From a virus (lineage: Duplodnaviria > Heunggongvirae > Uroviricota > Caudoviricetes): a DNA stretch of 64,000 nt. The DNA is taken from IMG/VR virus record IMGVR_UViG_3300042987_001724; one strand, given 5' to 3'. Positions 9,089-39,363 of the stretch are shown here, piece by piece. Made by a program: the position numbers and the translations under genes. The first letter of the stretch is position 1. Each line of letters begins with the position of its first letter. The notes under the pieces are model-generated. The model worked only from the letters and a program-made list of their open reading frames with translations, did no database searches and was not told where the DNA came from.

Positions 9089-9092
9089 GCCG

Positions 9093-10475: not shown

Positions 10476-10945
10476 TACAAGCTCCCGTTCTCGTAGAGAT
10501 CGCGAACCTCGCTGATCGTCAATTCTCTACCATTGAGAATGCCGGTCTTGCGGGACAGTGAAAGCAGGTGAGACCTGCGGTCGGCGTCGATGCCTTTTGT
10601 TTTGTGTGCGGCGTTGATGAATGCGGTCCATCTGTCGCCGTTTTCAAGTGCCATTACGCGGCCTTCTCCGAAGTCTTTTGCGTATCGCTTGGCGACGTCC
10701 CTGTCGTTGAAGTGAGCGACGGGCACGCCGGACATATTCCCGGAGACTCCACCGATCACATAGACCCCCGGAATTGATGGTCGCTCATACAGTTCAGCCC
10801 AGAGCGTTCCGTATCCACGAACCCGAGGGTTGAATCCGTCCAGATCCTCTTTCGGAATGCTTCTGTTGTATTCGTCGAAGAAACGATCGGTTTCGCTGAG
10901 AACATCATCAATGTTGCGTCCGAAGTATGGGGCAGGCAGCGTCAT
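10475..10945 (-). CDS. hypothetical protein co-transcribed upstream of the sigma factor
   Basis: The ORF track extends to 11194, but the 5' part is low-complexity. An internal Met (MTLPAPYFGRNIDD..) at ~10945 leaves a ~215-bp divergent intergenic region. Its stop overlaps the sigma-factor start. Confidence 0.45.
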   Translation of the reverse strand: MTLPAPYFGRNIDDVLSETDRFFDEYNRSIPKEDLDGFNPRVRGYGTLWAELYERPSIPGVYVIGGVSGNMSGVPVAHFNDRDVAKRYAKDFGEGRVMALENGDRWTAFINAAHKTKGIDADRRSHLLSLSRKTGILNGRELTISEVRDLYENGSL

Positions 10946-11162
10946 GTTGTTCCGTTCGTTGCGATGTTTTCCGTTGACCACACTGGGGAGAAGGATACCA
11001 ACCGTATCGGTATCTGCAATAGAATTATTTGAGAAACTTCCCGTGATCGCGTATGATTGTCCCGAACTACAAGCACGGTCGAGAAATACGATTTGTTGGA
11101 AACTTCCAGAAAATTGTGATCCGAACGGAAAATCGAGCGTAGATACTGGCAAGGAGACAGAG

Positions 11163-14563: not shown

Positions 14564-16489
14564 ATGTCTGCATCGTCACGATTTTCGCCACAGGACTGGG
14601 AGGCCACTTTAGTCGCCTGCCACTACCATCCAAAGCACGTCAAGGAACTGATGAAGCTGAGGGACGACATGCACGACTACGAAATGCACGTCCACCGGCT
14701 AGCAACAGATCCGAACCATAAAGTCCCGGACCCGCCGAACGTGACGATGCGACTCGGGCAGATCATTGGTGATGATGCCATGCGGCAATTCAGCCGCGAC
14801 GACGAATCCCCGCTCGAACTCGCCTGCCGACTCTCTGGGATCGGCCCGGCTGATGTTATCGCGTCTCTACCGTCGGAATTCAGCCGCCAGTTAGACGATA
14901 TCGGCCCCGTTGAATTCGGCCAGAAGTCGTTTGACTGGGACGAGACTGCGGTACACCGGGAAACGTCCGCTCACGACGGGAAAAAGCCCGGCGAATTCGC
15001 ACCAAAGCATGACTTCCCCGCAATCAATGCCGTGAAAGACGAATACAAGTTTCCGGAACGGCTGAATAAGCTGACTGCGATTCTGGATGCACATCAAACC
15101 GGAGATGTCCCGAAGGCTCAGTTCGAAATGGCCAAGAGCCACCTCAACTGGATTAAAGACGCAAAACGCCATTTGCTCGACTGGATGCACGCGGACCGAG
15201 ATGGGGATACTGATGCCGAACACCCACCAATGTCTCCAGCAGAAAGCGAGGCGGTTCGTGAGGCGTATTATGGATTCAACAAGAAGTCCATCAAGGCACT
15301 CGAAAAGCTGAACTCCGACCACCCAGCGGTAAAATACGCTCTCGCTCTGAATGCGGAACTGGACAAACTTGGCTCGCACATCGAATCCATGAAAGACAGG
15401 GTTGTCACGGCGGCACAGCAAAGGGAAGCCAAGAAAGCCGCAGCGGTTCGCGCCGAGAAGTCGAAGCCAGTGACCTCACTTTCGAAGGTTGTTGCCGAGG
15501 CGACTGAAACACTTCGCCCACAAATGACGTCCTTCTTTAAGCGAGTAATGACTGATCGGTTGAGTCTTCTGAATCGCATGGTTGACGAATACAACTCACA
15601 AGAGATTCCAAAGTCCACCGGGATTAGACTCACCAAGGAAGAACGAGACGCAGAGGAGTCCAGAAGCCGAAAATGGAAAAGCATCCAAGTCCTGTTCTCT
15701 GAAGTGCGAAACTGCCTGAGCGCTGACGCATCGGTGATGGAGGGAAACCACAAATTCGACGATGCTCGACTCGAAAGCCAGTCCAACGCATACGCCACGG
15801 GAGTCATCGAAGGGATGAGGTCCAAGATCAACCAAAAGCTGGAGGATCTTGACGACGCCAGCTTTAGGCATGCCAGCGGCGGCGAAAACACATTCGGATT
15901 GCACGGAACTCGCGACGGAAAGAAAGTCGAGATTCAGCAGAGCGTAAAATGGAACGTATCGTCTCTCGGGAACCCATTCAATCAGTATCCGGCCCTGATC
16001 TACGTTGACGGCAAGAGCGTATCTGAGGCGAAGTACAAAAGCATGTTCAGTCAGAAACCTGAACATCCGTCAAGTGAACCGGAGAAGCCAAAAGGCTCTG
16101 CACAGTCATTCATCTCTACCGTGCGGGAAATGGGATACAAAAACCCATTCTCCAATGAGACAGTTGTCGGAAACGCCGCCGTAGAACTGCACGCCAGCCC
16201 GGACGGATCGGTCTGGTTGAAAAGCATTCGGGCACTGACGCCGAAAAAAGGCGACGGCAGCGCAATGCTGAAGCAACTCACGAAACTGGCGGATGAAAAC
16301 GGAGTCGAGATCAAGGGCGAAGCGGTCCCATTCGGCAAGAGCATGAGTGCTGCGAAGCTCAAGAAATGGTACGTCGCCCACGGATTTACGCTGAACGGAG
16401 AAGAGTTTACCTACACGCCAACTCCACGATTGAAGATCGGCAGCGGACCCATGCGATCAATCCCAATCGAACAGCCGGAGCAAGAATAG
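14564..16489 (+). CDS. polyvalent protein 1 (641 aa) with linker module and C-terminal GNAT-like domain
   Basis: Contains RQFSRDD and SEFSRQLDDIGPVEFGQKSFDWDETAVHRETSAHDGKKPGEFAPK (module). C-terminal GNAT motif A-like LKSIRALTPKKGDGSAMLKQL. Ends EEFTYTP plus tail. Confidence 0.8.
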   Translation: MSASSRFSPQDWEATLVACHYHPKHVKELMKLRDDMHDYEMHVHRLATDPNHKVPDPPNVTMRLGQIIGDDAMRQFSRDDESPLELACRLSGIGPADVIASLPSEFSRQLDDIGPVEFGQKSFDWDETAVHRETSAHDGKKPGEFAPKHDFPAINAVKDEYKFPERLNKLTAILDAHQTGDVPKAQFEMAKSHLNWIKDAKRHLLDWMHADRDGDTDAEHPPMSPAESEAVREAYYGFNKKSIKALEKLNSDHPAVKYALALNAELDKLGSHIESMKDRVVTAAQQREAKKAAAVRAEKSKPVTSLSKVVAEATETLRPQMTSFFKRVMTDRLSLLNRMVDEYNSQEIPKSTGIRLTKEERDAEESRSRKWKSIQVLFSEVRNCLSADASVMEGNHKFDDARLESQSNAYATGVIEGMRSKINQKLEDLDDASFRHASGGENTFGLHGTRDGKKVEIQQSVKWNVSSLGNPFNQYPALIYVDGKSVSEAKYKSMFSQKPEHPSSEPEKPKGSAQSFISTVREMGYKNPFSNETVVGNAAVELHASPDGSVWLKSIRALTPKKGDGSAMLKQLTKLADENGVEIKGEAVPFGKSMSAAKLKKWYVAHGFTLNGEEFTYTPTPRLKIGSGPMRSIPIEQPEQE

Positions 16490-16492
16490 CCA

Positions 16493-19400
16493 ATGTCGCT
16501 CGAATCCGACCTGCAAACCGTACTCGGTTCATTTGTGGAAGTTTCCACGCCAATTCCTTTCTCAAGAACCGCCGCACCGGGGCAGAAACGTCTCTGGAAT
16601 GAGGCCGATGTCAGCCGGGAGTCCGAAGCCCATGAGGGGAAGCGCCCCGGCGAGTTCGCCCCGAAGCCACATGAGGGCACTGTTGACATCGGGAACGGAG
16701 TGTCGCTTAAAACTCATCCGCCAAAAACACACGTTATTAGGCCCGGCAACCAGTACGACACCCATTATTGGGAGGCCATAAAAAACGGAGAGACCATCGG
16801 CAGCGGGAGATATGCGAACTACGGAACCGCAACCCAGCCACTGGAGGTATCGGTGAATCCGTCGCATCGCGGTCAGGGAGTTTATTCGTCGGTGTTGGCG
16901 GAACTAAATCGCCGCGCGACTGTAATCCCGAACGACCTAAGCGTAAGCACTGAAGCAAAAAGGGCGTGGAACAGATTTCGAAAACAAACCGGAGAGCAAC
17001 CACAGTTCCCAGAAGCTATGACTCCGCAAGAGAAAAAGTCAAAAACGCCAGCCGGTCAGAATCTCCTGTTCGACTCCGGCGTCAGCGATCAGCCCGTAGC
17101 GAAGCCAGCCCCGCAACCGAGTGAGTTGGAGAAGATTGACGACGAGCAGAAGAAATCGAAGATTGCTCCGGTCGAAGGGCAGAAAGAGCTATTTGAGGGT
17201 GGATTGGAGCCTGTTCATCACCACGTCGCGAAGCGATTCGGGATTCCCCCGCACGCCGTCAAGAGCCTGATGGAATCCGGCGTGCCAGAATTGCGACGCC
17301 GCGACGAGTGGCTAGCTGAGAGTAATGGGGCTTCCCCGCAAACCGGGTTCGAGACATTCCCTCACGGCACAGCACGGATCAACCAATTCGGCGATCCCAA
17401 CGAATCCTACGTTGATTACATGACGGAATTCAGCCCGCACGATATCGAGCCGACGGAACCAGAGGACGGAATCAAGAAAAGCCAGACGTACAAGGATTAC
17501 GTCCAATGGGCGAAGGCGGGCCACCAGCCTCCCCCGGTCAGTGTGTTCAGTAGTAACAATGGCAACGGGAAACTGTTGACCTCAAGCCGCCGCAGAACGC
17601 TGGCCGCACGAGAGGCGGGAGTCGCAAAGATTCCAGCATGGCACGGACCCTATAACCCTGAAACCGGCAACCCGCTGAAATACGGTGACGTGATGAAGGC
17701 CGTAAACGAGTTCCACTCTCAGCAGTTTTCGCGAACGCTCAATGAAGTCACCCCGATAGAGTTCTCTGTCGCTGCTCCGCCACGTAAACGTCGAGTTATC
17801 GACGACAAGCGAACTCGCGAAGATGTTGACGAAGACGAAAAGGTATTCGGCAAGAAAAAACGAATCCCGACCGATGGTAACAAACCAGAAACCGGCTGGA
17901 CGAAAGTCGGTGGCAGCACGGTCCACGTCAACGATGATGGCGTCATCGACAAAGGCTGTCCCGGATTGAAGGGCGAGGAAGTCGAAGACCTGATTGACGA
18001 ATCCGACGAATCCCGCGAACGCCGCGAAGCCCGGCAGGCATACGCTCGCGCCGCTGGCATCACCGGAGATCAGATCACAGCCGAGCAAGCAAAAGCGATG
18101 GGGAGCGATGCTCACGTCGAAGGAATGAAGCAAGCCAAGGCAGTAGCGGAAGCAGATCCACGCCCAACAATCGGCACATCTGACGTTCTCCGTGGAGTGG
18201 ACGACCAGACCGGAGAGCTAGCCGGGAACGGTCACGAGCTTCTGCAATCCAACAATCGTGAGCACCCAGAATCCAACGAGCAATTCGAGGGAACTGGAAT
18301 GCCGTCGCCGATGAAGTTCATGGACGACGAAGACGAAGGCACCCGCCCGCAGTGGATGGGACCGAAGTTGTCGGAGATGGTCCCGATTCCGCCACGACCG
18401 AAATTCCTGCGAGATCGTGAGCCGCTCGACCACGATGCCGCAGCACAGTACCAGCCCCAGATTGACAAACTTGAGGCGGATATCGCCAAATGGCGAGATG
18501 CTCGCGACGCGATGAAAAAAGGCCGCGACGTCGGCCAATTCGGGCTTTCTCCAGAACAGAAAACCCCAGAATACGCCGATGCGCAAATCAAAGCACTGCA
18601 AGGACCGCTGGGGAAACTGAAACGGCAGTTGTCTGACTACCGGATGCGATCAACTCCAAACCAAAATCCAGCAACGCAGACATGGACCTCGCTGGACTCC
18701 GCAGCAGAGGGAGCGTCATCAAAATTCGGAATCCCAATTCACCACATTGTCGAAGCCATGCCGGATGCGTATTTATTCCGGCTGGCGCAGTCGATCGAGC
18801 ATGAATCGCTCAAAAAGGCAGCACGCAAGAAACTGCAAATGCACGCCGGTGATTTGGCAAGAATCGAAAACCAGCATTCCGACTGGTCTGATGTCCCCCG
18901 CTTCGACGAGGCTTCCCGAGAATTCGCGTCAGAAAACCCCGGTGCAGGTCTGGACCCATACGCCCACGATACGCCAGACAAGGTGTGGAGCCTGATCCGT
19001 GAGGGCGCGACGTCGATGCCAGCCAAGGACTCCCCGGAAATCGCAGAGCTTGCCGCACAGATGATTTCTGGCGACTACAATCGGAAGCCGCTGGAGTTCA
19101 CGTCAGAAGATGACCATGACGATCATGGCGACGATTTTTCAGATGACTGGGGAGGAGAACACGGCGACACGTCATTCGATCCGAATTCGTTCAGTCGATG
19201 GATACTCAATGCCGGTCCCGTGGAGTTCGCCCGCGTCAGGCCCGCCCGCAATCAATCTGCGTTCAATTGGGATGAGGATGCCCACCCCCGAGAGGCCACT
19301 GTACACGACGGAAAACGACCGGGAGAGTTTGCCGCAAAGCAGGGAGTCGCCGCGCCGCAGGAGATCGACCACGAATCCGACTACAAGCAGAACGGAACCC

Positions 19401-27052: not shown

Positions 27053-30000
27053 ATGCTTCCTTCAACCGCGTATTTGCTTTCCGACGCTTTTCGGCAGTCC
27101 ATTCAGTTTTCTACGGTGACGCCAGCGGCCCCTCACTCGCCAGTCCAGCACGCGACGATTGACCACAACACATTGAGCCATGCGGAGTTGGCGAACGCAG
27201 TAAAAACAGGCGGTCCGCACCAATTTCATGAATCAGAGCTTCCCAAGATCGGAATGCGGCTACGGAAGTCCGGCCAATTTTCAGCGGCAGACATCGTGGA
27301 TAACCATGCCAAGGCAATTCAGGCCGCGAAACAGCCCCCCGCCGCGCCTGTCGCCCAACGGCCAAATCTCCCCGCCTACGCTGGGGTTCTGTCGCCGAAT
27401 CGCAAAAAAGCCGTCATGGATTTTGTCAATCACGCGAATCCTGACGTTCAAAAGCATGTTGCCGATCATCAGGTCCACGTCCCCGGACTGACGCCCAAAG
27501 AAGCCTACGTGCGAGCACAGAAAGCCTACGACACATTCCATGCCGCGCACATGGGCGTTCCGCTGGCGACTCCTACCGCTTCACAGCCGACGGCAGCGCC
27601 GCAGTCAGCCCAACAATCGCCACCGCAGCCCGGAGTCTCTGCCTCTGCTCCACAACCAGCCGAGGATAAGGGTTCCGATTGGGATCTATGGAAAAACAAG
27701 GGGAGTCGGCCTCCGTTGAGTAGCCAGCAAAGGGCGGCGATTGGTCGGAAAATGGGGCTGACTGTCGGAACGCCAGAGGATGACGCACATCTCCCGAAGA
27801 CTATGCTGAACATCAGAAGTGATTATGCGGCGAACGCGGTAAAGGAGGAGGAGCCGGCGTACCAAAAGCCACTCATAGACCCCTCAAAGTACATTCCAGA
27901 TCGAAATGACCGCCTGCGATTGCGGACAATGGAAGCATGGGCGTTCAAGACTCCAGAGGGAAAAAAGGCTTACGATGAGTCCGGGATTGAAAAACTTGGA
28001 ATGGGGAAGCAACACACAGAGGCATTTCACCAACTTTACGACAAGTATCATTCCGGGCAGCAATCCGCACCCCCAGCGACACAACCAGCGAAGCAAACCC
28101 CGGCAGACGTCGCGAAGATGCACGCCGAAGCCGTCCGCAGTGGTCGCCCGGTCCCACCGCAGTATCTTGATCGCGTTCAGAAAAACCTGCGAGCACACGG
28201 CTACCATGCCGAGGCCGATCAGATCGCCCCGAAACAGGATGACGCGGCCTATGCTGCCGATCAGTTCGGATCGGGAACGATTCCGGCAACAACCGGGATC
28301 ACCGGCGCGGGGATGAAACGTCCCGGAGCACCTGCCCCGCAGAGATCGTTCTTGAATGACGAATCCACTGGCAGTCCAGCTAAATTACCGCCACGCCGCC
28401 CCGCACCAGCAAGCACGCCAGCCGAACAGCTTCCCGCCCCGAAGTTTGGTTACAGCACCCACACCGCACCGGCTGGAGTTGTCCCCGGAGAGCAATCAGA
28501 ACAACAGCCATCAACCCACGGTCGATTCTCCAGACTTCTCGACGCCGCGCGGCAGGGAAAGTTGAAAGAACACGTCGAAGGCGGTTTAGGGAACTTTTTT
28601 GACAAGTTCGAGCGACACGGCGGTAAACTTCTGAAAAAGATCGGCATCGACACCGGCTACAACGAGCAGGAATACAGCCGAGTTTCCGTAGCAATCGCCA
28701 ATCTGAACGATATCGTCCAAGAGTTCGCACGGAAATCCGATCCGAACCAGATGAGCTTATTTGGCGGTGACGAAATCGCACTGGCAACGGCCCCAAAGTC
28801 CAAGACCAGAAATCTGCGAAAGCCCGCCCCCGGTCAGAAGTCGTTCAATTGGGACGAAGATAGCCACCCTCGCGAAAAGGATCATCACGACGGGAAGCGG
28901 CCCGGAGAGTTCGCTCCAAAGGAATCCGGACACACATCAGCCACGAAACAAGAGCCGGAACCTGAAGAATCAGCCGAAAAACCGGAATCGGAACAGAAGC
29001 CGGACACGAAGCGGACATATTCGGCCAAAGGAAACGAGGTCCACGACGCCGACGGTGTCCGCCACGGCGCATTCCGCAACGAAGAAAAAGCGAAAGAGGC
29101 CGCAGAGCGATGGAACCGGGAAGGGAAACCAAACTCGACCCCAGCGGCGAAAGCTGTCGAAGCGACGTTCCCTTCACTGGCGGGATATGTGGAGCCGGAA
29201 TCGCCTCGCGAAGAACTCAAGAAGATTGCCGATGAGCACTTGGCGAGCGAGATTCCACCGGCACAGAATCCAGTTTCGGGACCAAAAGCAACCGACGGAA
29301 CAATTCCCGGACTGGAGCCAGAAAAGCCGAGCGAGACCCCACGGGAAGCCGCTGAACGGCAACAAAAGGCACTGGACGCCGATTACGAATTCGCCCGACA
29401 ATCCGCCGTCCGAAACGCAGGAGAAGACTTGAAAGGATCGGCAAGGCACAAGCGAAACGCTTGGCAAGGGCTTGATGACGCCGAAGAGAACGGAACCGCC
29501 GCAGAATTGGTGACTCGCGACAATTTACTGAAAGCCGAGCCTCACGACCTGATGTCGGCAGCAGATGAAAACCCGCGAACTTCTCTGGCTGGTTATTTCG
29601 CCCTTCGATCTTTTCCCGCAAAACCGGGTTCGACATCGAAACGTGTTCGCATAGACGAAGAGACCGCTAAGAAAGATCGCCGACAGTTCTTGGAGACATA
29701 CAGGCAGTACAAATCGAAGATCGAAGAACTGGCAAAAACAGAGCCAGATCCCGCAAAGGCCATCGCAGAGATTCGTGGCTGGGTTGGTAAAAAAATCAAT
29801 GAATTGCGGGGGATTGAAAAGAACAGGTCAGACTATATGGCCAACGCAGGGTTGATTGGTGACGACAAGTACAACAACACAGCGAATGGATTGGTCGACA
29901 CGTACAAGTCGCTCGGACACAGGAAAACTGGCGTTGCTTCCCGGCTACAAGACTTCGACTTCCTTGCTCGCGAAAAATACGGTTCAGAAAAACCAAGCAC

Positions 30001-31048
30001 AGATGATTTGGCAGAGCACGCCAAGGACATCATTGAAGGCCGGTCAATGCCTGACGCATTTGGCGCGAAGGGGACCAAGAAGTCTCAGTTCAACGCATCA
30101 GATGCGTATGTGAAACACGCCATTCGCAAGGGCGGTCGCGACGTCTCGAAACTGACGAAAAACCCGAACGAAGCCGCCAAGCATATCCTTGAGAAGTTCG
30201 GCGCTCGCGGTGTTCAGTGGGGCAATAGCGTCACCGATGACGAGCGGATGCACCATGCGTCGAAACTGGTTGAGTCCCTTGCTGATCTCGCCGACATGAC
30301 AGGACTGAAGCCAGAGGATCTAAGCCTTGGCGGGAAACTTGGGTGGGCAGTCGGAGCACGCGGCCACGGCACGGCGTCCGCGCACTACGAGCCGGGAACA
30401 CAGGTCATTAACCTAACTCGCAAATCCGGAGTCGGGGCGCTGGCGCACGAGTGGGCGCACGCATTCGATCACTCGCATTCTAACTACAATATCATTAGCG
30501 ACGGCGAAAAACGCATGGGCGATTACGAGTCAGGAAACTGGTATCCGCAGAAGTTTAGCGGCAGCAGTCGGACACCAGTGGATCAAACGAAAAAGCCGCT
30601 ATGGCAGGCATACGAGGCTGTCCGTCAAGCATGGGCAAAAAGCGGATTCGACAAGCGTCTTTCCGCTGCCGTTTCACACCACATCAATGAAGGTCGGATG
30701 TCAAAGGGTAAACGAGACTATTGGCTTTCAAAACACGAGAAATTCGCACGCACTTTCGAGCGGTTCATCCAGCACAAGTTGCGTGAAAACGGCAGAGACA
30801 ACACGTATCTGTCTGGACTGGCATCAATCGAAGGTGAGCACGCATTGTGGCCGAACGACGAGGAAATCAAGGTGATGGCCCCCGCATTCGAGAAGCTGCT
30901 GTCGCACTATCGCAAAGAAAAGTACGGCGACGAAAAACCGCAGGAGTTCAGCCGATCTCAGGCGATTGCGTATTTCTCAGGAAACTCGCTCAGTTCAGCA
31001 GTTGAACGCCTGACAGCTCTTTCGTCCTCACTCCGCAACGCAAGCTGA
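27053..31048 (+). CDS. giant polyvalent protein 3 (1331 aa) with zincin metallopeptidase domain
   Basis: P/A/Q-rich N-terminal ~530 aa. Internal module IVQEFARKSDPNQMSLFGG..PAPGQKSFNWDEDSHPREKDHHDGKRPGEFAPK. HExxH zincin motif LAHEWAHAFDH. Ends KPQEFSRSQAIAYFSG plus tail. Confidence 0.85.
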   Translation: MLPSTAYLLSDAFRQSIQFSTVTPAAPHSPVQHATIDHNTLSHAELANAVKTGGPHQFHESELPKIGMRLRKSGQFSAADIVDNHAKAIQAAKQPPAAPVAQRPNLPAYAGVLSPNRKKAVMDFVNHANPDVQKHVADHQVHVPGLTPKEAYVRAQKAYDTFHAAHMGVPLATPTASQPTAAPQSAQQSPPQPGVSASAPQPAEDKGSDWDLWKNKGSRPPLSSQQRAAIGRKMGLTVGTPEDDAHLPKTMLNIRSDYAANAVKEEEPAYQKPLIDPSKYIPDRNDRLRLRTMEAWAFKTPEGKKAYDESGIEKLGMGKQHTEAFHQLYDKYHSGQQSAPPATQPAKQTPADVAKMHAEAVRSGRPVPPQYLDRVQKNLRAHGYHAEADQIAPKQDDAAYAADQFGSGTIPATTGITGAGMKRPGAPAPQRSFLNDESTGSPAKLPPRRPAPASTPAEQLPAPKFGYSTHTAPAGVVPGEQSEQQPSTHGRFSRLLDAARQGKLKEHVEGGLGNFFDKFERHGGKLLKKIGIDTGYNEQEYSRVSVAIANLNDIVQEFARKSDPNQMSLFGGDEIALATAPKSKTRNLRKPAPGQKSFNWDEDSHPREKDHHDGKRPGEFAPKESGHTSATKQEPEPEESAEKPESEQKPDTKRTYSAKGNEVHDADGVRHGAFRNEEKAKEAAERWNREGKPNSTPAAKAVEATFPSLAGYVEPESPREELKKIADEHLASEIPPAQNPVSGPKATDGTIPGLEPEKPSETPREAAERQQKALDADYEFARQSAVRNAGEDLKGSARHKRNAWQGLDDAEENGTAAELVTRDNLLKAEPHDLMSAADENPRTSLAGYFALRSFPAKPGSTSKRVRIDEETAKKDRRQFLETYRQYKSKIEELAKTEPDPAKAIAEIRGWVGKKINELRGIEKNRSDYMANAGLIGDDKYNNTANGLVDTYKSLGHRKTGVASRLQDFDFLAREKYGSEKPSTDDLAEHAKDIIEGRSMPDAFGAKGTKKSQFNASDAYVKHAIRKGGRDVSKLTKNPNEAAKHILEKFGARGVQWGNSVTDDERMHHASKLVESLADLADMTGLKPEDLSLGGKLGWAVGARGHGTASAHYEPGTQVINLTRKSGVGALAHEWAHAFDHSHSNYNIISDGEKRMGDYESGNWYPQKFSGSSRTPVDQTKKPLWQAYEAVRQAWAKSGFDKRLSAAVSHHINEGRMSKGKRDYWLSKHEKFARTFERFIQHKLRENGRDNTYLSGLASIEGEHALWPNDEEIKVMAPAFEKLLSHYRKEKYGDEKPQEFSRSQAIAYFSGNSLSSAVERLTALSSSLRNAS

Positions 31049-31058
31049 AAGAATCTAT

Positions 31059-34000
31059 ATGGAACCCGGTTTCCTTGCCGCAGTCGATATTCTGGTCAAT
31101 CACTACCTCCCTGAATCCGAGTTCGCCCGCAAGTCGGCACCGAATCAACTTGGATTGTTTGGTGAGGACGAACTTGCCGCAGCCGTGGCCCCGAAGTCTC
31201 GCGCCCGGAATCTGCGAAAACCAGCCAAGGGGCAGATGGCTTTCAATTGGGATGAGGATTCGCACCCCCGAGAGGCGACTGTACACGACGGAAAACGACC
31301 GGGGGAGTTCGCGCCGAAGGAACACGCAGAGGCGGCGAAGGTCGCAGAGATGTACCCGTCCCTGAAAGATGACGTGGAGTCAGAGCCTGATGAGGAACAG
31401 CCGGAACCGGAACCAGTGGCGACTCACGCCGAACCGATCGTTCACAATGGCCATCAGATCGAACCGAAAGTCAGCAAGTCTAGCGACGGCACCGACGAGC
31501 ACTACGCACACTGGAAGAAAAACGGATCATGGGAAGCCGGAGTCACCAACTCGCACGGCAGCAGGGAAGAGGCGATTGAATCCGCGAAAGCGATGATCGA
31601 CGAATCCAATGATTCGAAGCAGCCCGCGAACCCATTCCGCGAAGAAGCCGACAGAATCAGGGCGAAAGCCGATCAGCTTGCGGGTGGAACAGCACACGAC
31701 AAGGCGATGGCATCGGCCTTCATTCTCGGCACCGGACGCCCCGGAAACGCATCGTCACAGCGAACAAGCCGACAGGCTGAGAAACGCATCGACGCAAGTA
31801 TCGACCGGGCATTGAAGGCCACCGAACTGTACGGTAAGGCGAAGTCAGTGGAGGCAAAAGCGGCAGCATTCGACAATGGGCAGATTGACGCCAACGGGAA
31901 TCCAACAGAGAAAGCCGTGGCGGCAAGTGAAGCCCGAAAGACCGCAGCGGACGGAGCAAAGCAGCAAATTGCCGACTACTTGAAGGGAACACTGAAGCCG
32001 GGAGACCTGATCGACATCGGCGGGAATGGTCCGGTTGCAGTGCAGAAGGTCAATAAAACGACGGTGACATCCGAAGGTGGATCGAAGTGGAAGTTCGACG
32101 ACATCACTCCTACGGAAAACGGAAAGCCAATTTCAAGATCCGAGTTTGCGAAGCGAGTCAACGCATTCCACGCCAGCAATGATCAGCCCGCAACTGAGGC
32201 CGCACCGAATCCGATCACAGAGCAATTCCCGTCCCTAAAGGGATTCACAGAAGAACCGAAGCCAGCGGAAGCACCCGCCGAAACCAAAAGCGTCTGGCAG
32301 CTTCCTTCGGAACAGTTCGATGCGATGCTTGAAAAGCAAGCGAATGGTAAAGCACCAGAGGACTCCGGCCCACTCACGCTAGCAAAACTCGACGAACGCA
32401 AGGAGCGCATCAACACCGGGAAAGCAACAGCCGACGAAGTTCGGCAGTGGCACAAGGAACTCAGCGACCCCGCCAATATCGAGGCCATAAAGGCGGAATT
32501 CAACAAGCAGTCCGTCGCCGAATTGAAGTCGAAGGGCGGGACTGGGTACTACAACCGACAAAAGAAAGCCGATCTGATCGAGTCAATCATGGATCACATC
32601 GGCGACGAATACGACGTATCCCCCGGAGGGCTGTCGTATGTGATGAGTCCGGGCGGGAGTTTAATGAAGTCCAAGCAGGCCGCACTTCAGAAAAAACTCG
32701 CCGGATTGACTGACCAGCACATTGCCGATCACGCCGCGAAATTGTCCGGCGCAGTGGCAAAAAGAGAGGAAGCAAGCGAAGCGGTCCAAGAGGGAATCAA
32801 GAATCCACAGACGCTCGACGACTTCCGAAACGCGGTTCGCCATTATGGCGGTTATGCGAACATGCCGGAAGATATCCAAGTGGCGTTTGATGAGTTCGCT
32901 GCGAACCGACGGCGAGAGACTGCCGCACAGTCGAAAGCGAAAGTCACCGGGTTCAGCGGCGGCACCGAAGCCACTGGCGCAACCTCAATCGTCGAAGGTC
33001 ATCACCAGAAGAAAAACGCCCCAACCTACACCGTCACCGTTGAAAAGCATTTGGGCGATGGGTGGGGTGACGCACTGAGTCGAGCACGTCAACTCGGCGG
33101 AAGCTACGTCAATGGGTGGACAGCCAAGGCATACAAGGCAACGCCCGGCTTCCAATTCTTCAATCGGGCTGATGCGGAGAAGTTCCAAAAGTCGCTTGGC
33201 GGTGAGGAAGTAGACCGATCCGACCGTCTGGACGAAAAGAACATCGCCCGGATGGATAACGCATCGGAACGACTGGCCGCACTGTCCGAAGCCACGAAGA
33301 AACGTGCCGAAGAGAAGTTAAACGCACCGCGACAGACGAACACGCACCGCCGCGCCGAACACGCCGCAGGAGCACAGGCACAGGCCCGGTCCGAAGCAGC
33401 CAAGGCGGAAACCATGCAGCGGATCTCCGAAGGGCTGTCATCCGGATCGTTGAAGCATCTCGGCGGAATCCGCGCCAGAACCCACGTTGATACGCTCGAT
33501 TCTCTTCTGCACAACGCGAAGCTGAATGCGTGGCGAGACTCGAAATCGACGTCACAGGATTCCTACGAAGAAATGCGGGAACGTGACGCCACTTCGCAGG
33601 ATATCGCCAAGGCGAAATATCCGTACCCAAGGATTTGGGATCACGAACTCGCCGAACACCTCGACGAGTTATCGCAGATTCCCGGACTGAAGAACATCGC
33701 TCGCGACCTGAAGAGGTCTACAGAGAAATCCCCGTACAAAAAGAAGATCGGCAAGATTTCCATCAATGGCGGTGAAGCCAAGACGGCGGACCAATTGGCA
33801 GATATCCCGCTGGCCCGAGGACTCGTTAAAGACAAGGCTGTCCGAATCCACGTCTCCCAAGATCCGACACTACTGAAGGGACGACACCCAGTCGCCTACA
33901 CAGCCGACGGCGGGAAGACTTGGGGCACGACTCAGGACATCGCCGTTAGCGCAGCCGTTCACGGAGAAATCAACGGGACCAGCAAGCTCGACCTGATCGA

Positions 34001-34850
34001 CCCACCGCAGCACGAACAGGTGGAAATCAAAGATCCGGACACCATCGCCAGCATCCAAAAGGCGATCAAGATCCTGAAAAGGAAGTCAAACCCACGATTG
34101 AAACGTGTCGCGGAATCACTCGGCCAGCACATGGAGGATTACAACCGACTCCAAGGGATGGATATCACGACGCCGATGGAACTTCGGGCCGCACTCCGCG
34201 AATACGCACCGCTCAAGAAGCGACAGGACAAGGAAGACCCGGTAAAGGCCAAGGAAAGATCGTTGGTCGGTCGCAAAATAGACGGCTTTTTCCCGACACC
34301 ACGCCCGGCGATCGACAAGATGCTGGCCGCAGCAGACATCCAGCCCGGAATGAGCGTATTGGAGCCGTCCGCAGGCAAGGGCGATATCCTTGATGCAGTG
34401 AAGGAACAGCACCCCGACGCCAAGACCATCGGGATCGAAACGAATTCGGATCTCCGCGACCTCATCGGCATGAAAGGCCACGAGTTACACGACGACACCG
34501 ACTTCCTTCAGCACAACGGCCAATACGATCGAATCGTAATGAATCCACCTTTTGAAAATCGTCAGGACGCGACGCATGTTCAGCACGCTTTCAAGAACCT
34601 CAAGCCGGGAGGCAGGCTGGTAGCCATCATGGGGGCAGGCGTGTTCGGTGGCAGCAGCAAAAAGGATCAGGAGTTCCGGGACTGGCTCGACGAGCACGGC
34701 GGGGAAGTCGAAGACATGCCGGAAGGTTCATTCAACGGGGCCGACGCATTCCGCAAAACCGGCGTCAACACCCGCATGGTAGTGATTGACAAACCACACG
34801 ATACCAAACAGTTCAGCCGGGATCTCGCCTTCGTCCTTTCTCGCATTTGA
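31059..34850 (+). CDS. giant polyvalent protein 4 (1263 aa) with C-terminal N6-adenine DNA methyltransferase domain
   Basis: N-terminal leader MEPGFLAAVDILVNHYLPESEFARKSAPNQLGLFGED..KGQMAFNWDEDSHPREATVHDGKRPGEFAPK. MTase motif I VLEPSAGKGDIL and motif IV NPPF (DRIVMNPPFEN). C-terminal KQFSRDLAFVLSRI. Confidence 0.9.
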   Translation: MEPGFLAAVDILVNHYLPESEFARKSAPNQLGLFGEDELAAAVAPKSRARNLRKPAKGQMAFNWDEDSHPREATVHDGKRPGEFAPKEHAEAAKVAEMYPSLKDDVESEPDEEQPEPEPVATHAEPIVHNGHQIEPKVSKSSDGTDEHYAHWKKNGSWEAGVTNSHGSREEAIESAKAMIDESNDSKQPANPFREEADRIRAKADQLAGGTAHDKAMASAFILGTGRPGNASSQRTSRQAEKRIDASIDRALKATELYGKAKSVEAKAAAFDNGQIDANGNPTEKAVAASEARKTAADGAKQQIADYLKGTLKPGDLIDIGGNGPVAVQKVNKTTVTSEGGSKWKFDDITPTENGKPISRSEFAKRVNAFHASNDQPATEAAPNPITEQFPSLKGFTEEPKPAEAPAETKSVWQLPSEQFDAMLEKQANGKAPEDSGPLTLAKLDERKERINTGKATADEVRQWHKELSDPANIEAIKAEFNKQSVAELKSKGGTGYYNRQKKADLIESIMDHIGDEYDVSPGGLSYVMSPGGSLMKSKQAALQKKLAGLTDQHIADHAAKLSGAVAKREEASEAVQEGIKNPQTLDDFRNAVRHYGGYANMPEDIQVAFDEFAANRRRETAAQSKAKVTGFSGGTEATGATSIVEGHHQKKNAPTYTVTVEKHLGDGWGDALSRARQLGGSYVNGWTAKAYKATPGFQFFNRADAEKFQKSLGGEEVDRSDRLDEKNIARMDNASERLAALSEATKKRAEEKLNAPRQTNTHRRAEHAAGAQAQARSEAAKAETMQRISEGLSSGSLKHLGGIRARTHVDTLDSLLHNAKLNAWRDSKSTSQDSYEEMRERDATSQDIAKAKYPYPRIWDHELAEHLDELSQIPGLKNIARDLKRSTEKSPYKKKIGKISINGGEAKTADQLADIPLARGLVKDKAVRIHVSQDPTLLKGRHPVAYTADGGKTWGTTQDIAVSAAVHGEINGTSKLDLIDPPQHEQVEIKDPDTIASIQKAIKILKRKSNPRLKRVAESLGQHMEDYNRLQGMDITTPMELRAALREYAPLKKRQDKEDPVKAKERSLVGRKIDGFFPTPRPAIDKMLAAADIQPGMSVLEPSAGKGDILDAVKEQHPDAKTIGIETNSDLRDLIGMKGHELHDDTDFLQHNGQYDRIVMNPPFENRQDATHVQHAFKNLKPGGRLVAIMGAGVFGGSSKKDQEFRDWLDEHGGEVEDMPEGSFNGADAFRKTGVNTRMVVIDKPHDTKQFSRDLAFVLSRI
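31241..31318 (+). repeat. about 78-nt direct repeat, copy B
   Basis: Near-identical to 19262..19340. Both encode the WDED-HPRE-HDGKRPGEF box. Confidence 0.8.
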
Positions 34851-34894
34851 TGAATTAGGGAAGTTTCGTATAATCTCCCCGAAAGGAGCTAGTT

Positions 34895-35395
34895 TTGGCA
34901 AATCAAGCACAAGTGACGGCTCAACTGTACGCGAAGGAAACTGTCGCAGCGACAGATACCGCACCGAGTTACGATCAGCCCGCAGACATCGCGAACTATC
35001 CGACGCAATACTCTGCGTCACAGTTTCCGGGGCTGACGATCTGGGCACAGACCGTCACGCTGACGGCGGGAGCCTTGACACTCGATTTGACCGCACTGGC
35101 TCGCGCTGGGGCATCAACCGTCAATCTGACCGGGAAACGCATTCTGGCGGCCAAGGCTGTTGCGCTGGCGACGAATACGCATCCGGTCACCATCAAGCCC
35201 GGAGCGAGCAACCCCTATTCCGCTCTCGGCCTTGGCATCAGTCTCGGCGTTTCCGCTGTTACCACTGAACGACCGGATGAAGCTCTATTGCACATCCCGT
35301 CCGGGACAGCAGTTGACGCCACTCACAAAAATCTCGACTTCGCCAGTAGTGATGCTGACGCATCCGTAGCCATTATCATCATCGCCCGCACATAA
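34895..35395 (+). CDS. beta-rich structural-like protein (TTG start)
   Basis: Strong AAAGGAG RBS 7 nt upstream of TTG, and a TATAAT box ~25 nt upstream. Ala/Thr/Ser/Val-rich beta-type composition typical of virion accessory proteins. Inserted between giant genes 4 and 5. Confidence 0.5.
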   Translation: MANQAQVTAQLYAKETVAATDTAPSYDQPADIANYPTQYSASQFPGLTIWAQTVTLTAGALTLDLTALARAGASTVNLTGKRILAAKAVALATNTHPVTIKPGASNPYSALGLGISLGVSAVTTERPDEALLHIPSGTAVDATHKNLDFASSDADASVAIIIIART

Positions 35396-35406
35396 GGCCC
35401 GCAAAC

Positions 35407-38400
35407 ATGCCGGAACCCGGATTTCTTCGCGCAGTGGAAGTATTGACCGACGCCCTGTTGACCCCGCAGGAGTTTGCACGGCACAAGCCATCTCCAGACC
35501 AAATGACGCTCCGTTGGGTGACGATTCACCCACATGGCGAAGGTGAAGAAAGTCGAAGAATCCAGATCAACACCGAAACCGGCGAAATCGAGAAGGGTTT
35601 CGGGGCTGGAAAAACCATGCACGAAGCCTTTTCACCGAAGAGTGAAACGCTTGCCACAAGTGAAACACAGTCCAGCACTCCGGGGCGCAAATGGTATGGG
35701 ATGACGTATCGACCACCAGCATTGGGCGCGATCCCCAAAGGTGAGTATGAGCACAAGCCGCACCCTGATTTCCGGCACGGACAGATCTCCTACAATGAGC
35801 CACTCAGTCAGGAGATGCAGGACGCCTATGAGCTTACGCCAATCCATGAGGACGGGGATATTCCGGCTGTCGCGAAGTCTGTTGGCGCTGCGATGGGGAA
35901 GTATGCTGGCGAATACGCCAAGCCGCAAAACGCACAGCTTCTCGACGACCAACTGTCTCTAGAACGCATCCGCAAACTTCTCGGTCACGTTGACAAGGAG
36001 AAACTGAAAGCGGAGTTCCGGAAACAGTTCGGACAGGAATCCGATGCGGACCGCATTGAATCGGAGGCGTCATCTATCGCGGATGGCGTGCAAAAGCAAA
36101 AACAGCGATCAATGATTTATCAGGCGGACGACAAGGAGCGACTTGCAGAAAAGCACGGAAAGCCGCTCGACGCATATCACGATCTCCCGTTTGATGATTG
36201 GATGAAACTTCGTGCGGCTGATGACGAATCAGGTCGGGAACCGCAAAAGCCAGACGACGCCATCCTGAGCAAATATCCATCCCTTGCCGAACCACCGAAA
36301 CAAGCCGAAATGAGCGAGATGGTCCGCGCCGCCGCTGGCTATCAACTCCACGGAATGAGGAATGAACCAGAAGACCGCGCGGCATGGCGAGAACATTCAC
36401 AGCACATGACGAAATCCGCACTCGACGGATGGCTGATGAAGAAGTTCGGGATCGATTCCGCCACCGCCCGAGCCGTCAGCAACGCCGCTGGTGATATGAA
36501 CCCATTCACAACCGAAGGAGCGGGGACCGTTGGAGGGCAGGGCGTCAAATGGAATCACGACAGCCCGGAACCGACGATGGAGGAACTTGGTGACATGCCT
36601 TGGCTGAAGTCGGACGCGGCAGCAGAGAACTCAATCCAGCACAATCGCGAATCGCTATCGTCGATGCGTTCCGGGATGAAAGCGAAGATTGCCGAACTTG
36701 AGGCCAAGGAGGCGTCGGAAACTAAGCGACTGACGGCGGAAAAATCCCGAGCAAAGGGGGCGGAGAAAAAGGACGCGATTGACGATCAGTGGCGAGCCAT
36801 GAAGGACGACTTGTCAAAGCAGCGACAGGCTGTGATGCAGTCTCACCTGAAGGAAATCGAGTCGCATCCCGAGTATCAGCAGGAAAAGGCGGAGTCGTCA
36901 AGAAAAGCCAAGGGAAGGCAGGACGCATCTCAGGCGGAAGACAAGGCGAGAGCCAGCGACGCTGATAAAGCGAACTGGGACCACATTCAGAGCAACGGAG
37001 GCTACGAAGCCGTTCGCGACAGTCTTACCGCAGACATCAAAAGTCTGAAAAGTCGACTTGCTAAAACCAAGGACGCGAATAAATGGAAACTGGAAAGCAA
37101 TCTCGCCAATCGGGAGCGTGACCTTGAGCGAGTGAATGCACTGAATGAGAAATACGGGTCGAAACAGCCAGCCGTCCCACCGGAGATAGCCGCAAAGTAC
37201 CCATCATTGGCGGAAGACGTTGGCGCAAAACCAGAGGCAGCAAAAGAGCCGTGGGAGATGACACGAGACGAGTTCATGCGACAATCGGCAGCGAAACCAG
37301 CGTCGGGCGGATTTGCTGCGAGAGCAAACGCGAAGATTGCCAAGCCGTACCATCGACAATTGGTCACTCAGGCCGTCGCTGATGGGAAGTCGGTTCCGCC
37401 AGAAGTTCTCGCCGATTATCCAGAATTGTCGGGCGATCCAGAGAAGTCTGGTCAAGTCTCGTCAAGTCCGGAGAAGTCCGCAGACGAGCGGAAACCATTC
37501 AAGCCCGAAGGCGTCCCCGGCGAGCAAATGGGGTTGTTCGATCAGGACGCAGGCGGACAGAAATCTCTGTTCAATGTTGTCAAACCCGACAAGAAATCGA
37601 AAAAGGCACCAGCCGCCGCGCCGTCCGAACTGGAAAAGATCAGAGACGAGCACAATGCGAGGTCCGAAGAATCCGCACCGCTACCGGGGCAGAAGTCTAT
37701 CAGGGGTTTAGCAACAAAGCCGAAAAACACCGCAGAGGCTGATGAAAAGATCGCGTCTCAAAAAATGGCCTCCGACTTTCTTCAGGAGTCCAGAGATGAA
37801 AAAGAACAAGCGAAAAGAAAAGAGCGAGTGAGTCAATGGAGAAGCGGCTTCACTGGATCTCCAAAGGAGAATAACGCATCCGGAGATATCGCTCGCCACG
37901 ACTGGGAAAAGGCACTGCAAAACGGAGTATCCCCAAAACGACTTTCCGAGATGGTCGATAGTGCCGTTCAGGCTGGCGCTCTCGACGCTGGCGTTGGAAA
38001 GCATCTAAAGTCTCGGTTTTCTATCGAAGATCAGTACCCGAGCCTGAAGGGGTTCTCGGATCACCAAAATCTCAAGCCCATGTACGCCCCAAGCGACGAA
38101 AAGACCAAGGCGGGCGAGGAGTACCGCACCGCACTTGCCGGAGCCGGTAAATTCCACGCATCCAGAGTTGCGGCAGCGGAAGCAGGCGTTAAGGCTGGTC
38201 ACACACTCGACGAAATGCTGCAAGACCTGAAGGACGAAGGCGTCCACGAATTCGACGCGAAGCGGATCATCGGAGACGCATTCAACAAGGCCGGAAAGCC
38301 AGTAACTCGAAGCGACCAGCCGAAGCCGAGGCCATCCGACGATGACTGGAAACCAGAGAACCACGTCAAGATCGCAGCGGATGACATCAGCAAACTACGA

Positions 38401-39363
38401 AAGCAAGACGTTCACCGACTCATGGAGAACGCCACGGGCGACCGCCGCGCCAAGATGGCCGACTACATCCGGCAGAACCGCCCAGAACTCGCAGGAGAGG
38501 TTCAGGACTCGCTTGACGACTTGGGTGGAGATTCATCCGCATCTAAGGACTCCCCGTCTGTGTACGAGATTCGAGTGAAAGGCCAAGACGGAAACCCGAC
38601 AACTAAACATGCTGTGGCAATGCGAGGTAAGCCGGGTTTTGGAGATAGCGTATTTAACTCGCGAGAGGAAGCCGAATCTCACATCAAAAAGACGGGCGAG
38701 ATAAACAGACTTAATGCTGAATATCAGGCTAAACAAGACGTGATTCGTAAAACGGAACAGGAAAAGGAACACGCCGAAAAGACGGAGCGTGAAAGCATCG
38801 ACGGGTTTGCCAACGACAGGTCACCAAGAGACAAGGCCAATATCATCAAGACACTGAATGCGAAAGCGTCATTCGATGGTAAGGTTATGTCGGTTAAAGA
38901 TAAAGTAAGGGATCTTGTCGCGAATGGAGAATCGCTGTCGGCTGACGAGGAAAACAAAATCAAGCCTATGACGCGAACTCAATTCAACAGGGCGGATGGT
39001 CGCGAACAGGACGCCCACGAAAAAAGAATGCGTGAAGGCGGCAAGAAAACCGTGTATCGCATTGGCGGGTATGATCTCGGGAAGACTGCATACGACTACG
39101 CCAAGCATCTGCTCTCGCAAGGAAAGAAAGAGTTCTCCCGCCGCGCACCACACGAAGAACTAATCCATCATCTCCACGAAGCAATGAACCACGACGGAAA
39201 ATGCTGCTACGAAAAAGAGGAAGGGGAAGACGACATCGCGGATCACGTTCCAGCCGATCACCGCCACATGGACAAATCCGTCCACGAACTCTGCCGACAT
39301 CTCGGAGCATCGCACCCGGAATTGCAGGCGGCATACGAAAACTACACCGCCGCAGTAGAATAG
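35407..39363 (+). CDS. giant polyvalent protein 5 (1318 aa), mostly charged/coiled-coil
   Basis: N-terminal leader MPEPGFLRAVEVLTDALLTPQEFARHKPSPDQM. Internal LFDQDAGGQKSLFN..KKAPAAAPSELEKIRDE box shared with protein 2. C-terminal KKEFSRRAPHEE plus Cys/His-rich tail. Confidence 0.85.
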   Translation: MPEPGFLRAVEVLTDALLTPQEFARHKPSPDQMTLRWVTIHPHGEGEESRRIQINTETGEIEKGFGAGKTMHEAFSPKSETLATSETQSSTPGRKWYGMTYRPPALGAIPKGEYEHKPHPDFRHGQISYNEPLSQEMQDAYELTPIHEDGDIPAVAKSVGAAMGKYAGEYAKPQNAQLLDDQLSLERIRKLLGHVDKEKLKAEFRKQFGQESDADRIESEASSIADGVQKQKQRSMIYQADDKERLAEKHGKPLDAYHDLPFDDWMKLRAADDESGREPQKPDDAILSKYPSLAEPPKQAEMSEMVRAAAGYQLHGMRNEPEDRAAWREHSQHMTKSALDGWLMKKFGIDSATARAVSNAAGDMNPFTTEGAGTVGGQGVKWNHDSPEPTMEELGDMPWLKSDAAAENSIQHNRESLSSMRSGMKAKIAELEAKEASETKRLTAEKSRAKGAEKKDAIDDQWRAMKDDLSKQRQAVMQSHLKEIESHPEYQQEKAESSRKAKGRQDASQAEDKARASDADKANWDHIQSNGGYEAVRDSLTADIKSLKSRLAKTKDANKWKLESNLANRERDLERVNALNEKYGSKQPAVPPEIAAKYPSLAEDVGAKPEAAKEPWEMTRDEFMRQSAAKPASGGFAARANAKIAKPYHRQLVTQAVADGKSVPPEVLADYPELSGDPEKSGQVSSSPEKSADERKPFKPEGVPGEQMGLFDQDAGGQKSLFNVVKPDKKSKKAPAAAPSELEKIRDEHNARSEESAPLPGQKSIRGLATKPKNTAEADEKIASQKMASDFLQESRDEKEQAKRKERVSQWRSGFTGSPKENNASGDIARHDWEKALQNGVSPKRLSEMVDSAVQAGALDAGVGKHLKSRFSIEDQYPSLKGFSDHQNLKPMYAPSDEKTKAGEEYRTALAGAGKFHASRVAAAEAGVKAGHTLDEMLQDLKDEGVHEFDAKRIIGDAFNKAGKPVTRSDQPKPRPSDDDWKPENHVKIAADDISKLRKQDVHRLMENATGDRRAKMADYIRQNRPELAGEVQDSLDDLGGDSSASKDSPSVYEIRVKGQDGNPTTKHAVAMRGKPGFGDSVFNSREEAESHIKKTGEINRLNAEYQAKQDVIRKTEQEKEHAEKTERESIDGFANDRSPRDKANIIKTLNAKASFDGKVMSVKDKVRDLVANGESLSADEENKIKPMTRTQFNRADGREQDAHEKRMREGGKKTVYRIGGYDLGKTAYDYAKHLLSQGKKEFSRRAPHEELIHHLHEAMNHDGKCCYEKEEGEDDIADHVPADHRHMDKSVHELCRHLGASHPELQAAYENYTAAVE

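Follow-up and report, generated by a model that had tools for sequence, protein, structure and literature searches.

Polyvalent proteins are widespread, and the locus described here bears both on how they are loaded into phage capsids and on how they are divided into working units. It lies in a stretch of 64,000 nucleotides (the window) from the Caudoviricetes record IMGVR_UViG_3300042987_001724 of IMG/VR. Six proteins encoded in the window, named A to F below, carry copies of one peptide module, which combines the tetrapeptide (E/Q)F(S/A)R with a short helix and a long conserved HPRE..GEFAPK segment. We propose that this module is a packaging tag and a cutting site at once, a joint reading that in our judgment is about equally likely to hold or to fail. 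The proposal follows from the finding that the core motif of the module is also present at the expected self-processing positions of the putative capsid-maturation protease encoded in the same window.

Genes for a large terminase subunit, a decoration protein and a capsid protein identify the window as part of a phage genome, and exact or near-exact copies of its proteins are found on metagenomic contigs of up to 115-118 kb. The module is carried by the following open reading frames (ORFs), given in window coordinates together with one peptidase motif read in them; protein lengths are in amino acids (aa).

14564-16489, + strand: ORF A, 641 aa
16493-25192, + strand: ORF B, 2,899 aa
27053-31048, + strand: ORF C, 1,331 aa
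30446-30460, + strand: HEWAH motif of the zincin-like metallopeptidase unit of C, upstream of LPD1 (C aa 1132-1136, read in the translation)
31059-34850, + strand: ORF D, 1,263 aa
35407-39363, + strand: ORF E, 1,318 aa
9093-9425, - strand: ORF F, 110 aa

According to Pfam, B contains an ART-PolyVal domain (50.2 bits, cut-off 31.2), C an LPD1 domain (aa 1219-1288; 46.3 bits, cut-off 27) and D a Methyltransf_23 domain (31.9 bits, cut-off 27) of the N6-adenine type with an NPPF motif. A DarA_C-like stretch in E is borderline, its 26.2 bits falling just below the cut-off of 27. The evidence for the zincin unit of C is at the level of the motif only; PHROG matches span this unit, and the PHROG matches of the carriers are giant phage proteins. 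Because they unite such disparate domains (ART-PolyVal, LPD1/zincin, methyltransferase and the borderline DarA_C), the carriers fall under the definition of polyvalent proteins that Iyer et al. 2017 (PMC5512222) gave. Judged from their sequences, A to E together with F are best explained as polyvalent effector proteins that would be packaged in the capsid of a phage of roughly 115 kb.

What does the module consist of? Alignment of the window copies with the tags of their relatives reveals a common grammar: E/Q-F-S-R, an amphipathic helix of 8-20 residues, E-F-A-R, a segment that we call M2 (P-x-G/N-Q-x-x-L/F-F/W) and a segment M3 (W-D-E-x-x-H-P-R-E-x3-H-D-G-K-R/K-P-G-E-F-A-P-K), that is, the HPRE…HDGKRPGEFAPK motif. 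In the tag of D, AlphaFold predicts a confident helix for residues 3-16 and coil for the remainder, with a predicted template modelling score of 0.21, which makes the module a disordered element with short linear motifs rather than a folded domain. M3 closes with G-E-F-A-P-K, in which the E-F-[S/A] core is repeated, and in one relative (P0024) GEFSR is read at the equivalent position. A shorter generic form, F-D-E-x-x-H-P-R-x(n)-G-x-F, is present in B (21953-22045) and in several family members. Throughout the cargo proteins of the window's clade, [EQ][FY][SAG]x was observed 190 times against 50 expected. Its third position is limited to S, A or G, and the fourth is R in 92 cases and P in 34; W, T, Q and N also occupy the fourth position in cargo, where variants such as EFGW, QFST, EFSQ and EFSN are found.

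A full copy begins with the helix, includes EF[SA]R and the PxGQ motif and ends with HPRE..GEFAPK. The window contains seven such copies and about twelve partial ones. When all six reading frames were searched with a profile of the core, seven full copies, one short variant and one copy with M2 only were recovered, and no others anywhere in the window. The copies and isolated motif sites in A to F are listed below, with the support for each in brackets.

14786-14797, + strand: extra QFSR in A
14876-15007, + strand: full copy, A aa 105-148, EFSR-QLDDIGPV-EFGQ-KSFDWDE..HRETSAHDGKKPGEFAPK (translation; profile, 70.6 bits)
16493-16666, + strand: leader and module, B aa 1-58, the leader ending in PFSR and followed by AAPGQKRLW..RESEAHEGKRPGEFAPK (translation; profile; orthologous leader in P0032)
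17723-17767, + strand: partial junction in B, QFSR-TLNEVTPIEFS, lacking M2 and M3 (motif kept in P0050)
19187-19339, + strand: full internal module, B aa 899-949, immediately upstream of the ART-PolyVal unit (translation; profile)
20480-20491, + strand: EFSR ending the ART unit of B (QFSR there in P0050, P0019 and P0057)
20777-20929, + strand: full internal module, B aa 1429-1479, QEFSQ-QLQDIEPV-EFAR-IKPAPGQMSLFDE..RETEAHEGKRPGEFAPK (translation; profile)
21953-22045, + strand: short generic variant in B, of the HPRD..GRF form, EMSR-TPAAGQGSFNWDADEHPRDEIGRFKDK (orthologue in L005)
23096-23179, + strand: junction in B lacking M3, EFSR-LLDITPV-EFGR-KPAAGQKGFDFDA (translation; orthologues)
24263-24445, + strand: degenerate double junction in B, QFSR…EFSN…EFSR-LPILTAEEF-EFAR-RPYKPGEGQGEFPF (translation)
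25139-25189, + strand: C-terminal tail of B, QFSR and 13 aa (kept in 5 of 5 orthologues)
27053-27115, + strand: N-terminal leader of C, ending in IQFST (common to P0029, P0033 and P0043)
28670-28921, + strand: long internal module of C, EYSR-helix-EFAR-KSDPNQMSLFGGDE…KPAPGQKSFNWDEDSHPRE..HDGKRPGEFAPK (translation; profile)
29387-29398, + strand: additional motif site in C
30944-31045, + strand: C-terminal tail of C, EFSR and 30 aa (runs in frame into the next unit in P0022 and P0031)
31059-31319, + strand: leader and long module, D aa 1-87 (translation; profile; AlphaFold helix, aa 3-16)
34809-34847, + strand: C-terminal tail of D, QFSR and 9 aa (translation; orthologues)
35407-35517, + strand: leader of E, with helix, EFAR and the M2-like PSPDQMTLRW, lacking M3 (translation)
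39130-39360, + strand: EFSR and a conserved C-terminal unit of 73 aa in E (translation; orthologues)
9291-9425, - strand: tag of F, the seventh full copy, with leader, EFSN and HPRE..HDGKKPGEFAEK, lacking M2 (translation; profile)

A first-pass annotation of this DNA had listed the module, or parts of it, at ten sites, and at each of them the translation indeed reads as the module or a part of it. Absent from that list were three sites in B (17723, 20480 and 24263), one in A (14786), two in C (27053 and 29387) and the tails of B, C, D and E. Among the relatives, P0081 is a paralogue of F with the same tag and a different body. Another linker motif, the third, was also observed: [YF]-P-S-L-[A/K]-[G/E] is found six times in C, D and E, where 0.1 is expected (at 29168, 31353, 32226, 36274, 37198 and 38035, all on the + strand), and 17 times in the wider family, where 1.1 is expected, with none in A, B or the protease-scaffold protein described below. 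It may mark a different type of junction.

Is it the peptide or the DNA that is conserved among these copies? The tetrapeptide had been put at about 20 occurrences against fewer than one expected by chance, and counting bears this out: in the 7,452 aa of A to E, [EQ]F[SA]R occurs 18 times with 0.29 expected analytically, and the maximum reached in 2,000 shuffles was 3. The shorter F[SA]R occurs 22 times with 2.2 expected. Between module copies DNA identity is 63-89%, and where two copies have the same residue, their codons differ synonymously in about half of the cases. This divergence indicates that the peptide is conserved and that the copies are not a recent DNA repeat; an origin through DNA repetition or gene conversion was rejected on the same ground. 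In long alignments of orthologues (21-86% identity), the strict tetrapeptide is retained at 52 of 77 positions. We report these data as support for the view that the peptide is probably under purifying selection. No motif of the [EQ]F[SA]R type was found in 15 other structural and tail proteins of the adjoining locus, from the decoration protein downstream.

The positions of the motifs follow rules of their own. Cargo proteins of the window and its clade begin with an N-terminal leader of about 10-25 aa that ends in EF[A/S/G]x. In N-termini of the D/E type (nine clade proteins) EFAR stands at aa 20-24, and leaders of the B and C types end in a related motif (EFGR, PFSR or QFST). At the other end, most clade cargo has xFSR followed by a tail of 9-35 aa, the motif standing 12-35 residues from most C-termini, and in E-type proteins xFSR lies about 70 residues from the end, ahead of a conserved domain. 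At true N-termini the first motif is degenerate (GFLR, GFRH, SFRA) and the EFAR at the end of the leader is retained, a pattern that fits cut sites, since a site at the extreme terminus would be useless. The first-pass annotation had D, E and F starting inside the module, precisely where a cut after Arg would leave a new N-terminus. All three do start inside the module, but not at that terminus: their Met lies about 7 residues upstream of it. The motif that corresponds to EFSR is GFLA in D and GFLR in both E and F, and the Met precedes its Phe by about 4 residues.

The same annotation had proposed that relatives be checked for splits at the same points, and such variants do exist. P0022 (2,192 aa) combines a C-like unit (zincin and LPD1) and a D-like unit (methyltransferase) in one reading frame through an intact module, …PQEFSR-SDAIEFFTG…SGFLDALEFLVEN-EFAR-KPAVGQ…HPRE…GEFAPR, and in P0031/L011 the frame continues past the position where C ends. 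The boundary between genes C and D of the window thus lies inside the module. In L019, a contig of a metagenome-assembled genome (MAG) from Phycisphaeraceae, the splits between C, D and E are the same and the internal cassettes are exchanged. Moreover, unrelated small proteins (110-450 aa) have the leader and M2-M3 at their N-terminus as a tag (P0040, P0041, P0048, P0052, P0055, P0081 and F itself, which is identical to P0075); this use on small unrelated proteins disfavours the view that the module is a mere spacer.

Which enzyme could cut at these motifs? The candidate is encoded directly upstream of the decoration and capsid genes.

57629-59023, + strand: prohead protease with an assemblin fold (aa 1-158), joined to a helical scaffold (AlphaFold; homologue alignment)
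58109-58123, + strand: LAFSR, aa 161-165, straight after the protease domain
58283-58297, + strand: HEFSA in the protease-scaffold
58589-58603, + strand: VSMSR in the protease-scaffold
58622-58633, + strand: EFSR in the protease-scaffold, present only in close relatives
58793-58804, + strand: EFSR in the protease-scaffold
58901-58912, + strand: QFSR, aa 425-428, 36 aa from the C-terminus
59075-59893: lambda gpD-like decoration protein
59962-61119: gpE-like major capsid protein

AlphaFold gives this protein a β-rich N-terminal domain (aa 1-158; predicted local distance difference test, pLDDT, about 70-85) followed by long C-terminal helices. H57, S117 and H138 are invariant among the homologues, in the His-Ser-His order seen in assemblin. 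The strict tetrapeptide occurs three times in the ORF. Five of the six motifs lie in linkers of low pLDDT and the sixth (YEFSR) between two helices, and homologues at 45-55% identity keep five of the six, namely LAFSR, HEFSA, VSMSR, KYEFSRQ and the C-proximal (E/Q)FSR. More distant protease-scaffolds have xFSV or xFSL in the same places. On contig IMGVR_UViG_3300005582_000001, a diverged EFSR cargo (L005) and a diverged motif-bearing protease-scaffold (L025) are present together. In herpesviruses, the protease-scaffold precursors undergo self-cleavage just behind the protease domain and close to the C-terminus, at the R and M sites. Neither the protease-scaffold nor the module is matched by any Pfam or PHROGs model, even at E=10.

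The earlier view that the polyproteins would be processed after Arg into units can therefore be kept in part: the module marks unit boundaries and a candidate protease is at hand, but a cut after Arg is unsupported, as the fourth residue varies. Given this variation and the xFSV or xFSL of distant protease-scaffolds, the scissile bond is not assignable, and the constrained core is E/Q-F-small. A side observation concerns a distant homologue of the protease-scaffold with 759 aa (L027 1893-4169; L029 8606-10882), in which the protease domain is followed directly by an inserted domain. Ahead of the insert stands LSFDEGKHKRAPKGG…GTF, which resembles the generic F-D-E-x-x-H-x-R…G-x-F.

How far does the module extend beyond the window? 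In a search of 1.84 billion representative proteins with the profile of the M2-M3 core, only 98 proteins matched at E ≤ 1e-3; P0059 and P0072 among the matches are false positives of the repeat-protein kind. Members mostly measure 800-4,000 aa, and 2-7 copies in one protein are common. One group, the window's clade, is rich in EFSR. The other, exemplified by IMGVR_UViG_3300042444_000560, is without EFSR and has the core either with a Mu-type portal on one side and effector domains on the other (L004, P0028, P0042, P0047, P0060 and P0065) or beside 2H-phosphoesterase, ART, GNAT or JAB units. The portals of the former kind (L004 at 7541-11092, and the five proteins named with it) have long C-terminal extensions and represent portal-fused polyvalent proteins, with the HPRE..GEFAPK core standing between the portal domain and the ART and GNAT-like effectors. 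In L033, a phage whose portal carries the module, a gene for a subtilisin-type Peptidase_S8 (7909-8856) lies within the head-gene cluster.

The genome-derived matches are three MAG contigs (L019, L020 and L021), all of them from Planctomycetota and assigned to Phycisphaeraceae, Pirellulaceae and Gemmataceae. These contigs are the only taxonomic links, and they suggest Planctomycetota as the host phylum. Among 50,697 deposited phages, no match was returned by megablast of 27053-39363 or by tblastn of the module, and tblastn of the short variant gave an insignificant match only. A word-indexed protein search with the tag of D and a single-protein locus search with D were both empty, and literature searches found no earlier description of the module motif.

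Taken as a packaging tag and cutting site, the module would work as follows. The helix and the conserved downstream peptide would carry each unit into the procapsid, in the role of a propeptide or targeting tag. The E/Q-F-[S/A] cores would be the sites recognized by the assemblin-fold prohead protease that the phage itself encodes (57629-59023). This enzyme would trim the N-terminal leaders (about 20-24 aa) and the C-terminal tails (9-35 aa) and would divide the polyproteins at their internal junctions, yielding domain-sized effectors that are then ejected. Its own motifs would be self-cut positions of the herpesvirus type, one just behind the protease domain and the other about 35 aa from the C-terminal end. 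Cleavage itself, the bond that is cut and packaging through the tag are what we infer from sequence patterns; processing by the prohead protease is plausible. The leader may be a capsid-targeting peptide, as had been suggested earlier, by analogy with the capsid-targeting sequence (CTS) of T4 and the propeptides of SPN3US.

Several observations weigh against this proposal. Phages without EFSR still have the HPRE..GEFAPK core, so the tetrapeptide is not essential to the module, and in L033 and L034, which have the HPRE core and no EFSR, no motif was evident in both head proteins and cargo. A portal gene was not found in the window or in the 10 kb downstream of it; relatives have Mu-type portals. 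A binding partner used by both scaffold and cargo would likewise account for their common motif, and C carries a zincin peptidase of its own that could be the enzyme instead. Finally, the virion RNA polymerase (vRNAP) of N4, a polyvalent protein, is packaged uncleaved (PMC5512222).

Other explanations were weighed as well. The module may be a docking or assembly motif, in which the helix and EF[SA]R bind a common procapsid partner (capsid interior, portal or scaffold), or in which a tail pairs with the next leader in the manner of polyketide synthase docking, so that an ordered chain would remain uncleaved. The motif shared by scaffold and cargo and the intact packaging of N4 vRNAP agree with this, and so do the tails and leaders themselves, which are short amphipathic segments flanking gene boundaries and are adjacent in the fused P0022. 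However, short internal junctions with a single 8-residue segment between EFSR and EFAR leave no space for a helix pair, the decay of the first motif at true N-termini with retention of the second fits cut sites better than binding sites, and the motif positions in the protease-scaffold match those of assemblin-type self-cleavage. We consider docking unlikely. Another possibility is that processing takes place but is the work of the zincin-like metallopeptidase of C, or of a host protease after injection. HEWAH and LPD1 in C are consistent with it, and so is the prediction by Iyer et al. that polyvalent proteins are processed by zincin peptidases, either ahead of injection or following it (PMC5512222). 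It would leave unexplained why the motif is conserved in the protease-scaffold, and the small tagged proteins and the grammar of leaders and tails resemble head-maturation propeptides. We regard this explanation as rather improbable. The trypsin-like protein of ORF 3449-4459 (+ strand; Pfam Trypsin_2) would suit Arg at P1, but it has a Sec-type signal peptide and was set aside. It also has a basic linker rich in Q and R, and it is probably secreted and unlikely to be a head protease. Least probable is a passive linker or recombination joint, that is, a spacer kept similar through microhomology during cassette shuffling, whose peptide has no role. Mosaicism with respect to L019 and L005, cassette boundaries that often lie near modules, and the 89% DNA identity of copies B2 and D would be expected of such a joint. 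Most copies, however, differ at about half of the synonymous sites yet keep the peptide, by which this explanation is largely refuted. Moreover, in 98 clusters the HPRE core is retained by proteins that are unrelated in other respects, and the N-terminal tag is found on single-domain proteins, where a linker is unneeded.

A further idea concerns M2, in the form P-x-G/N-Q-x-x-L-F, and is compatible with the other explanations: it could be a motif that binds the beta sliding clamp and tethers released effectors to the host clamp and DNA. The peptide tied to this idea is KPAPGQMSLFDE. The published clamp-binding consensus is QLxLF, which transposases use (PMC4549789), and the late-transcription activator MuC of phage Mu is reported to use the clamp (PMC12867686). 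In the window, Q..LF occurs 8 times against 0.6 expected and the strict Q[LM][SDGAN]LF 4 times against 0.02; in 67 family proteins, Q..LF occurs 41 times against 6.7 expected, with 7 and 6 in permuted controls. QMSLF, QLGLF, QMGLF and QKSLF are read in the window, and exact QLSLF, QLDLF, QLNLF and QLGLF in the family, and the M2 region is coil in the AlphaFold model. On the other hand, the case is one of resemblance between sequences, many copies read Q-x-S-F-N-W instead of QLxLF, and the motif would never reach the host if the whole module were excised in the capsid. On balance a role in clamp binding seems unlikely. Three functions could even be combined in one tag. The helix and an uncleavable pseudo-substrate, PGEFAPK, would draw the cargo to the protease-scaffold within the procapsid, EFSR and EFAR would be used by the protease to release domain-sized effectors, and the retained Q-x-x-L-F would hijack the host beta sliding clamp. 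We regard this combination as a long shot. If true, it would represent a new code for cargo loading and host targeting in about 100 protein families, with effectors concentrated on DNA at infection.

The remaining genes of the window deserve brief mention.

50243-51913: large terminase subunit
51976-52488, + strand: small nucleotidyltransferase-like ORF directly after the terminase gene, with weak Polbeta and NTP_transf_2 matches
25207-26190, - strand: HNH endonuclease gene between B and C, on the opposite strand to them
1779-2639 and 7879-8664, + strand: further genes like HNH and GIY-YIG homing endonucleases

The array of giant genes may have been interrupted by mobile endonucleases. In the large terminase subunit, EEFAR is found at aa 12-16 (50279-50290, + strand), a leader-like position; it is a single case and may be due to chance. 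In a relative (L006), the stop-to-stop open stretch that holds the terminase gene amounts to 939 aa, and the terminase of L022 has a faint LAGLIDADG match, which may reflect an intein. Some 5 kb of small ORFs, lying on both strands and with no portal gene among them, separate the nucleotidyltransferase-like ORF from the protease-scaffold gene downstream.

What the locus offers is a portable tag of 20-90 aa, a candidate cut site of four residues and a named candidate protease, and its natural fused and split variants delimit the boundaries of units. If the module is indeed a packaging tag and cutting site, effector units and mature termini would be predictable from sequence in uncultured phages. 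Like the T4 CTS, the tag could also be used to load foreign proteins into capsids, and the specificities of assemblin-fold proteases would be widened.

How does this arrangement compare with known systems? The polyvalent proteins of phages and conjugative elements (Iyer, Burroughs, Anand, de Souza and Aravind 2017; PMC5512222) share with the carriers their giant size and their disparate domains, including ART-PolyVal, GNAT-like, zincin, LPD1, N6-adenine methyltransferase and DarA_C-like domains. They too belong to phages with terminase-based packaging, and they are predicted there to be packaged, injected and processed by peptidases. Text searches of that paper returned no linker, leader, or junction motif of the HPR or EFSR type. 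Unlike those proteins, the cargo in the window has no MuF or portal domain fused to it, the disordered tag seeming to replace that handle, and the candidate enzyme is a prohead protease and not a zincin peptidase. The bacterial clamp motif QLxLF is matched by M2 often as an exact pentapeptide and in a disordered region; the differences are that many M2 copies deviate and that the context here is virion cargo and not a replication or repair enzyme. With herpesvirus assemblin, the protein of ORF 57629-59023 shares the N-terminal protease domain joined to a scaffold, the His-Ser-His order and candidate sites just after the protease domain and about 25-35 aa before the C-terminus. The herpesvirus consensus is (V/L)-x-A↓S, and the sites here are candidates read from the motif.

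The closest parallels in principle are found in T4 and in the phiKZ-like phages. In T4, the protease gp21 cuts at L/I-x-E sites, and the ADP-ribosyltransferase Alt is trimmed at both termini (PMC9026906). As with the CTS and gp21 of T4 (IPI-III and Alt), a short N-terminal propeptide would target unrelated proteins to the prohead and be removed by an assemblin-fold protease, and a single short motif is found in both scaffold or core proteins and cargo, cleavage being only predicted in our case. T4 differs in having Glu at P1 where E/Q-F-S/A-(R) is found here, in having single cargo proteins where the window has multi-unit polyproteins with internal tags, and in having no counterpart of HPRE..GEFAPK. 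In SPN3US, gp245 removes propeptides of 20-24 aa or longer, some of them by several cuts (PMC10052503). The systems of phiKZ and SPN3US (gp175 and gp245) resemble the window in that many internal or ejection proteins are cut at a short motif and the protease cuts itself on its C-terminal side. Their motif is A/S/G-x-E, however, their hosts and head architecture are unrelated, and their propeptides are not one conserved portable module. Since no conserved Glu is present at the candidate P1, the Glu specificity of these proteases (L/I-x-E, A/S/G-x-E) does not extend to the window, and the system would work like those of T4, phiKZ and SPN3US but outside their specificity class. The principle of a propeptide combined with a prohead-protease motif is already established in T4 and phiKZ-like phages; what differs here is the motif, its use inside multi-unit polyproteins as well as at termini, and the long HPRE…GEFAPK segment.

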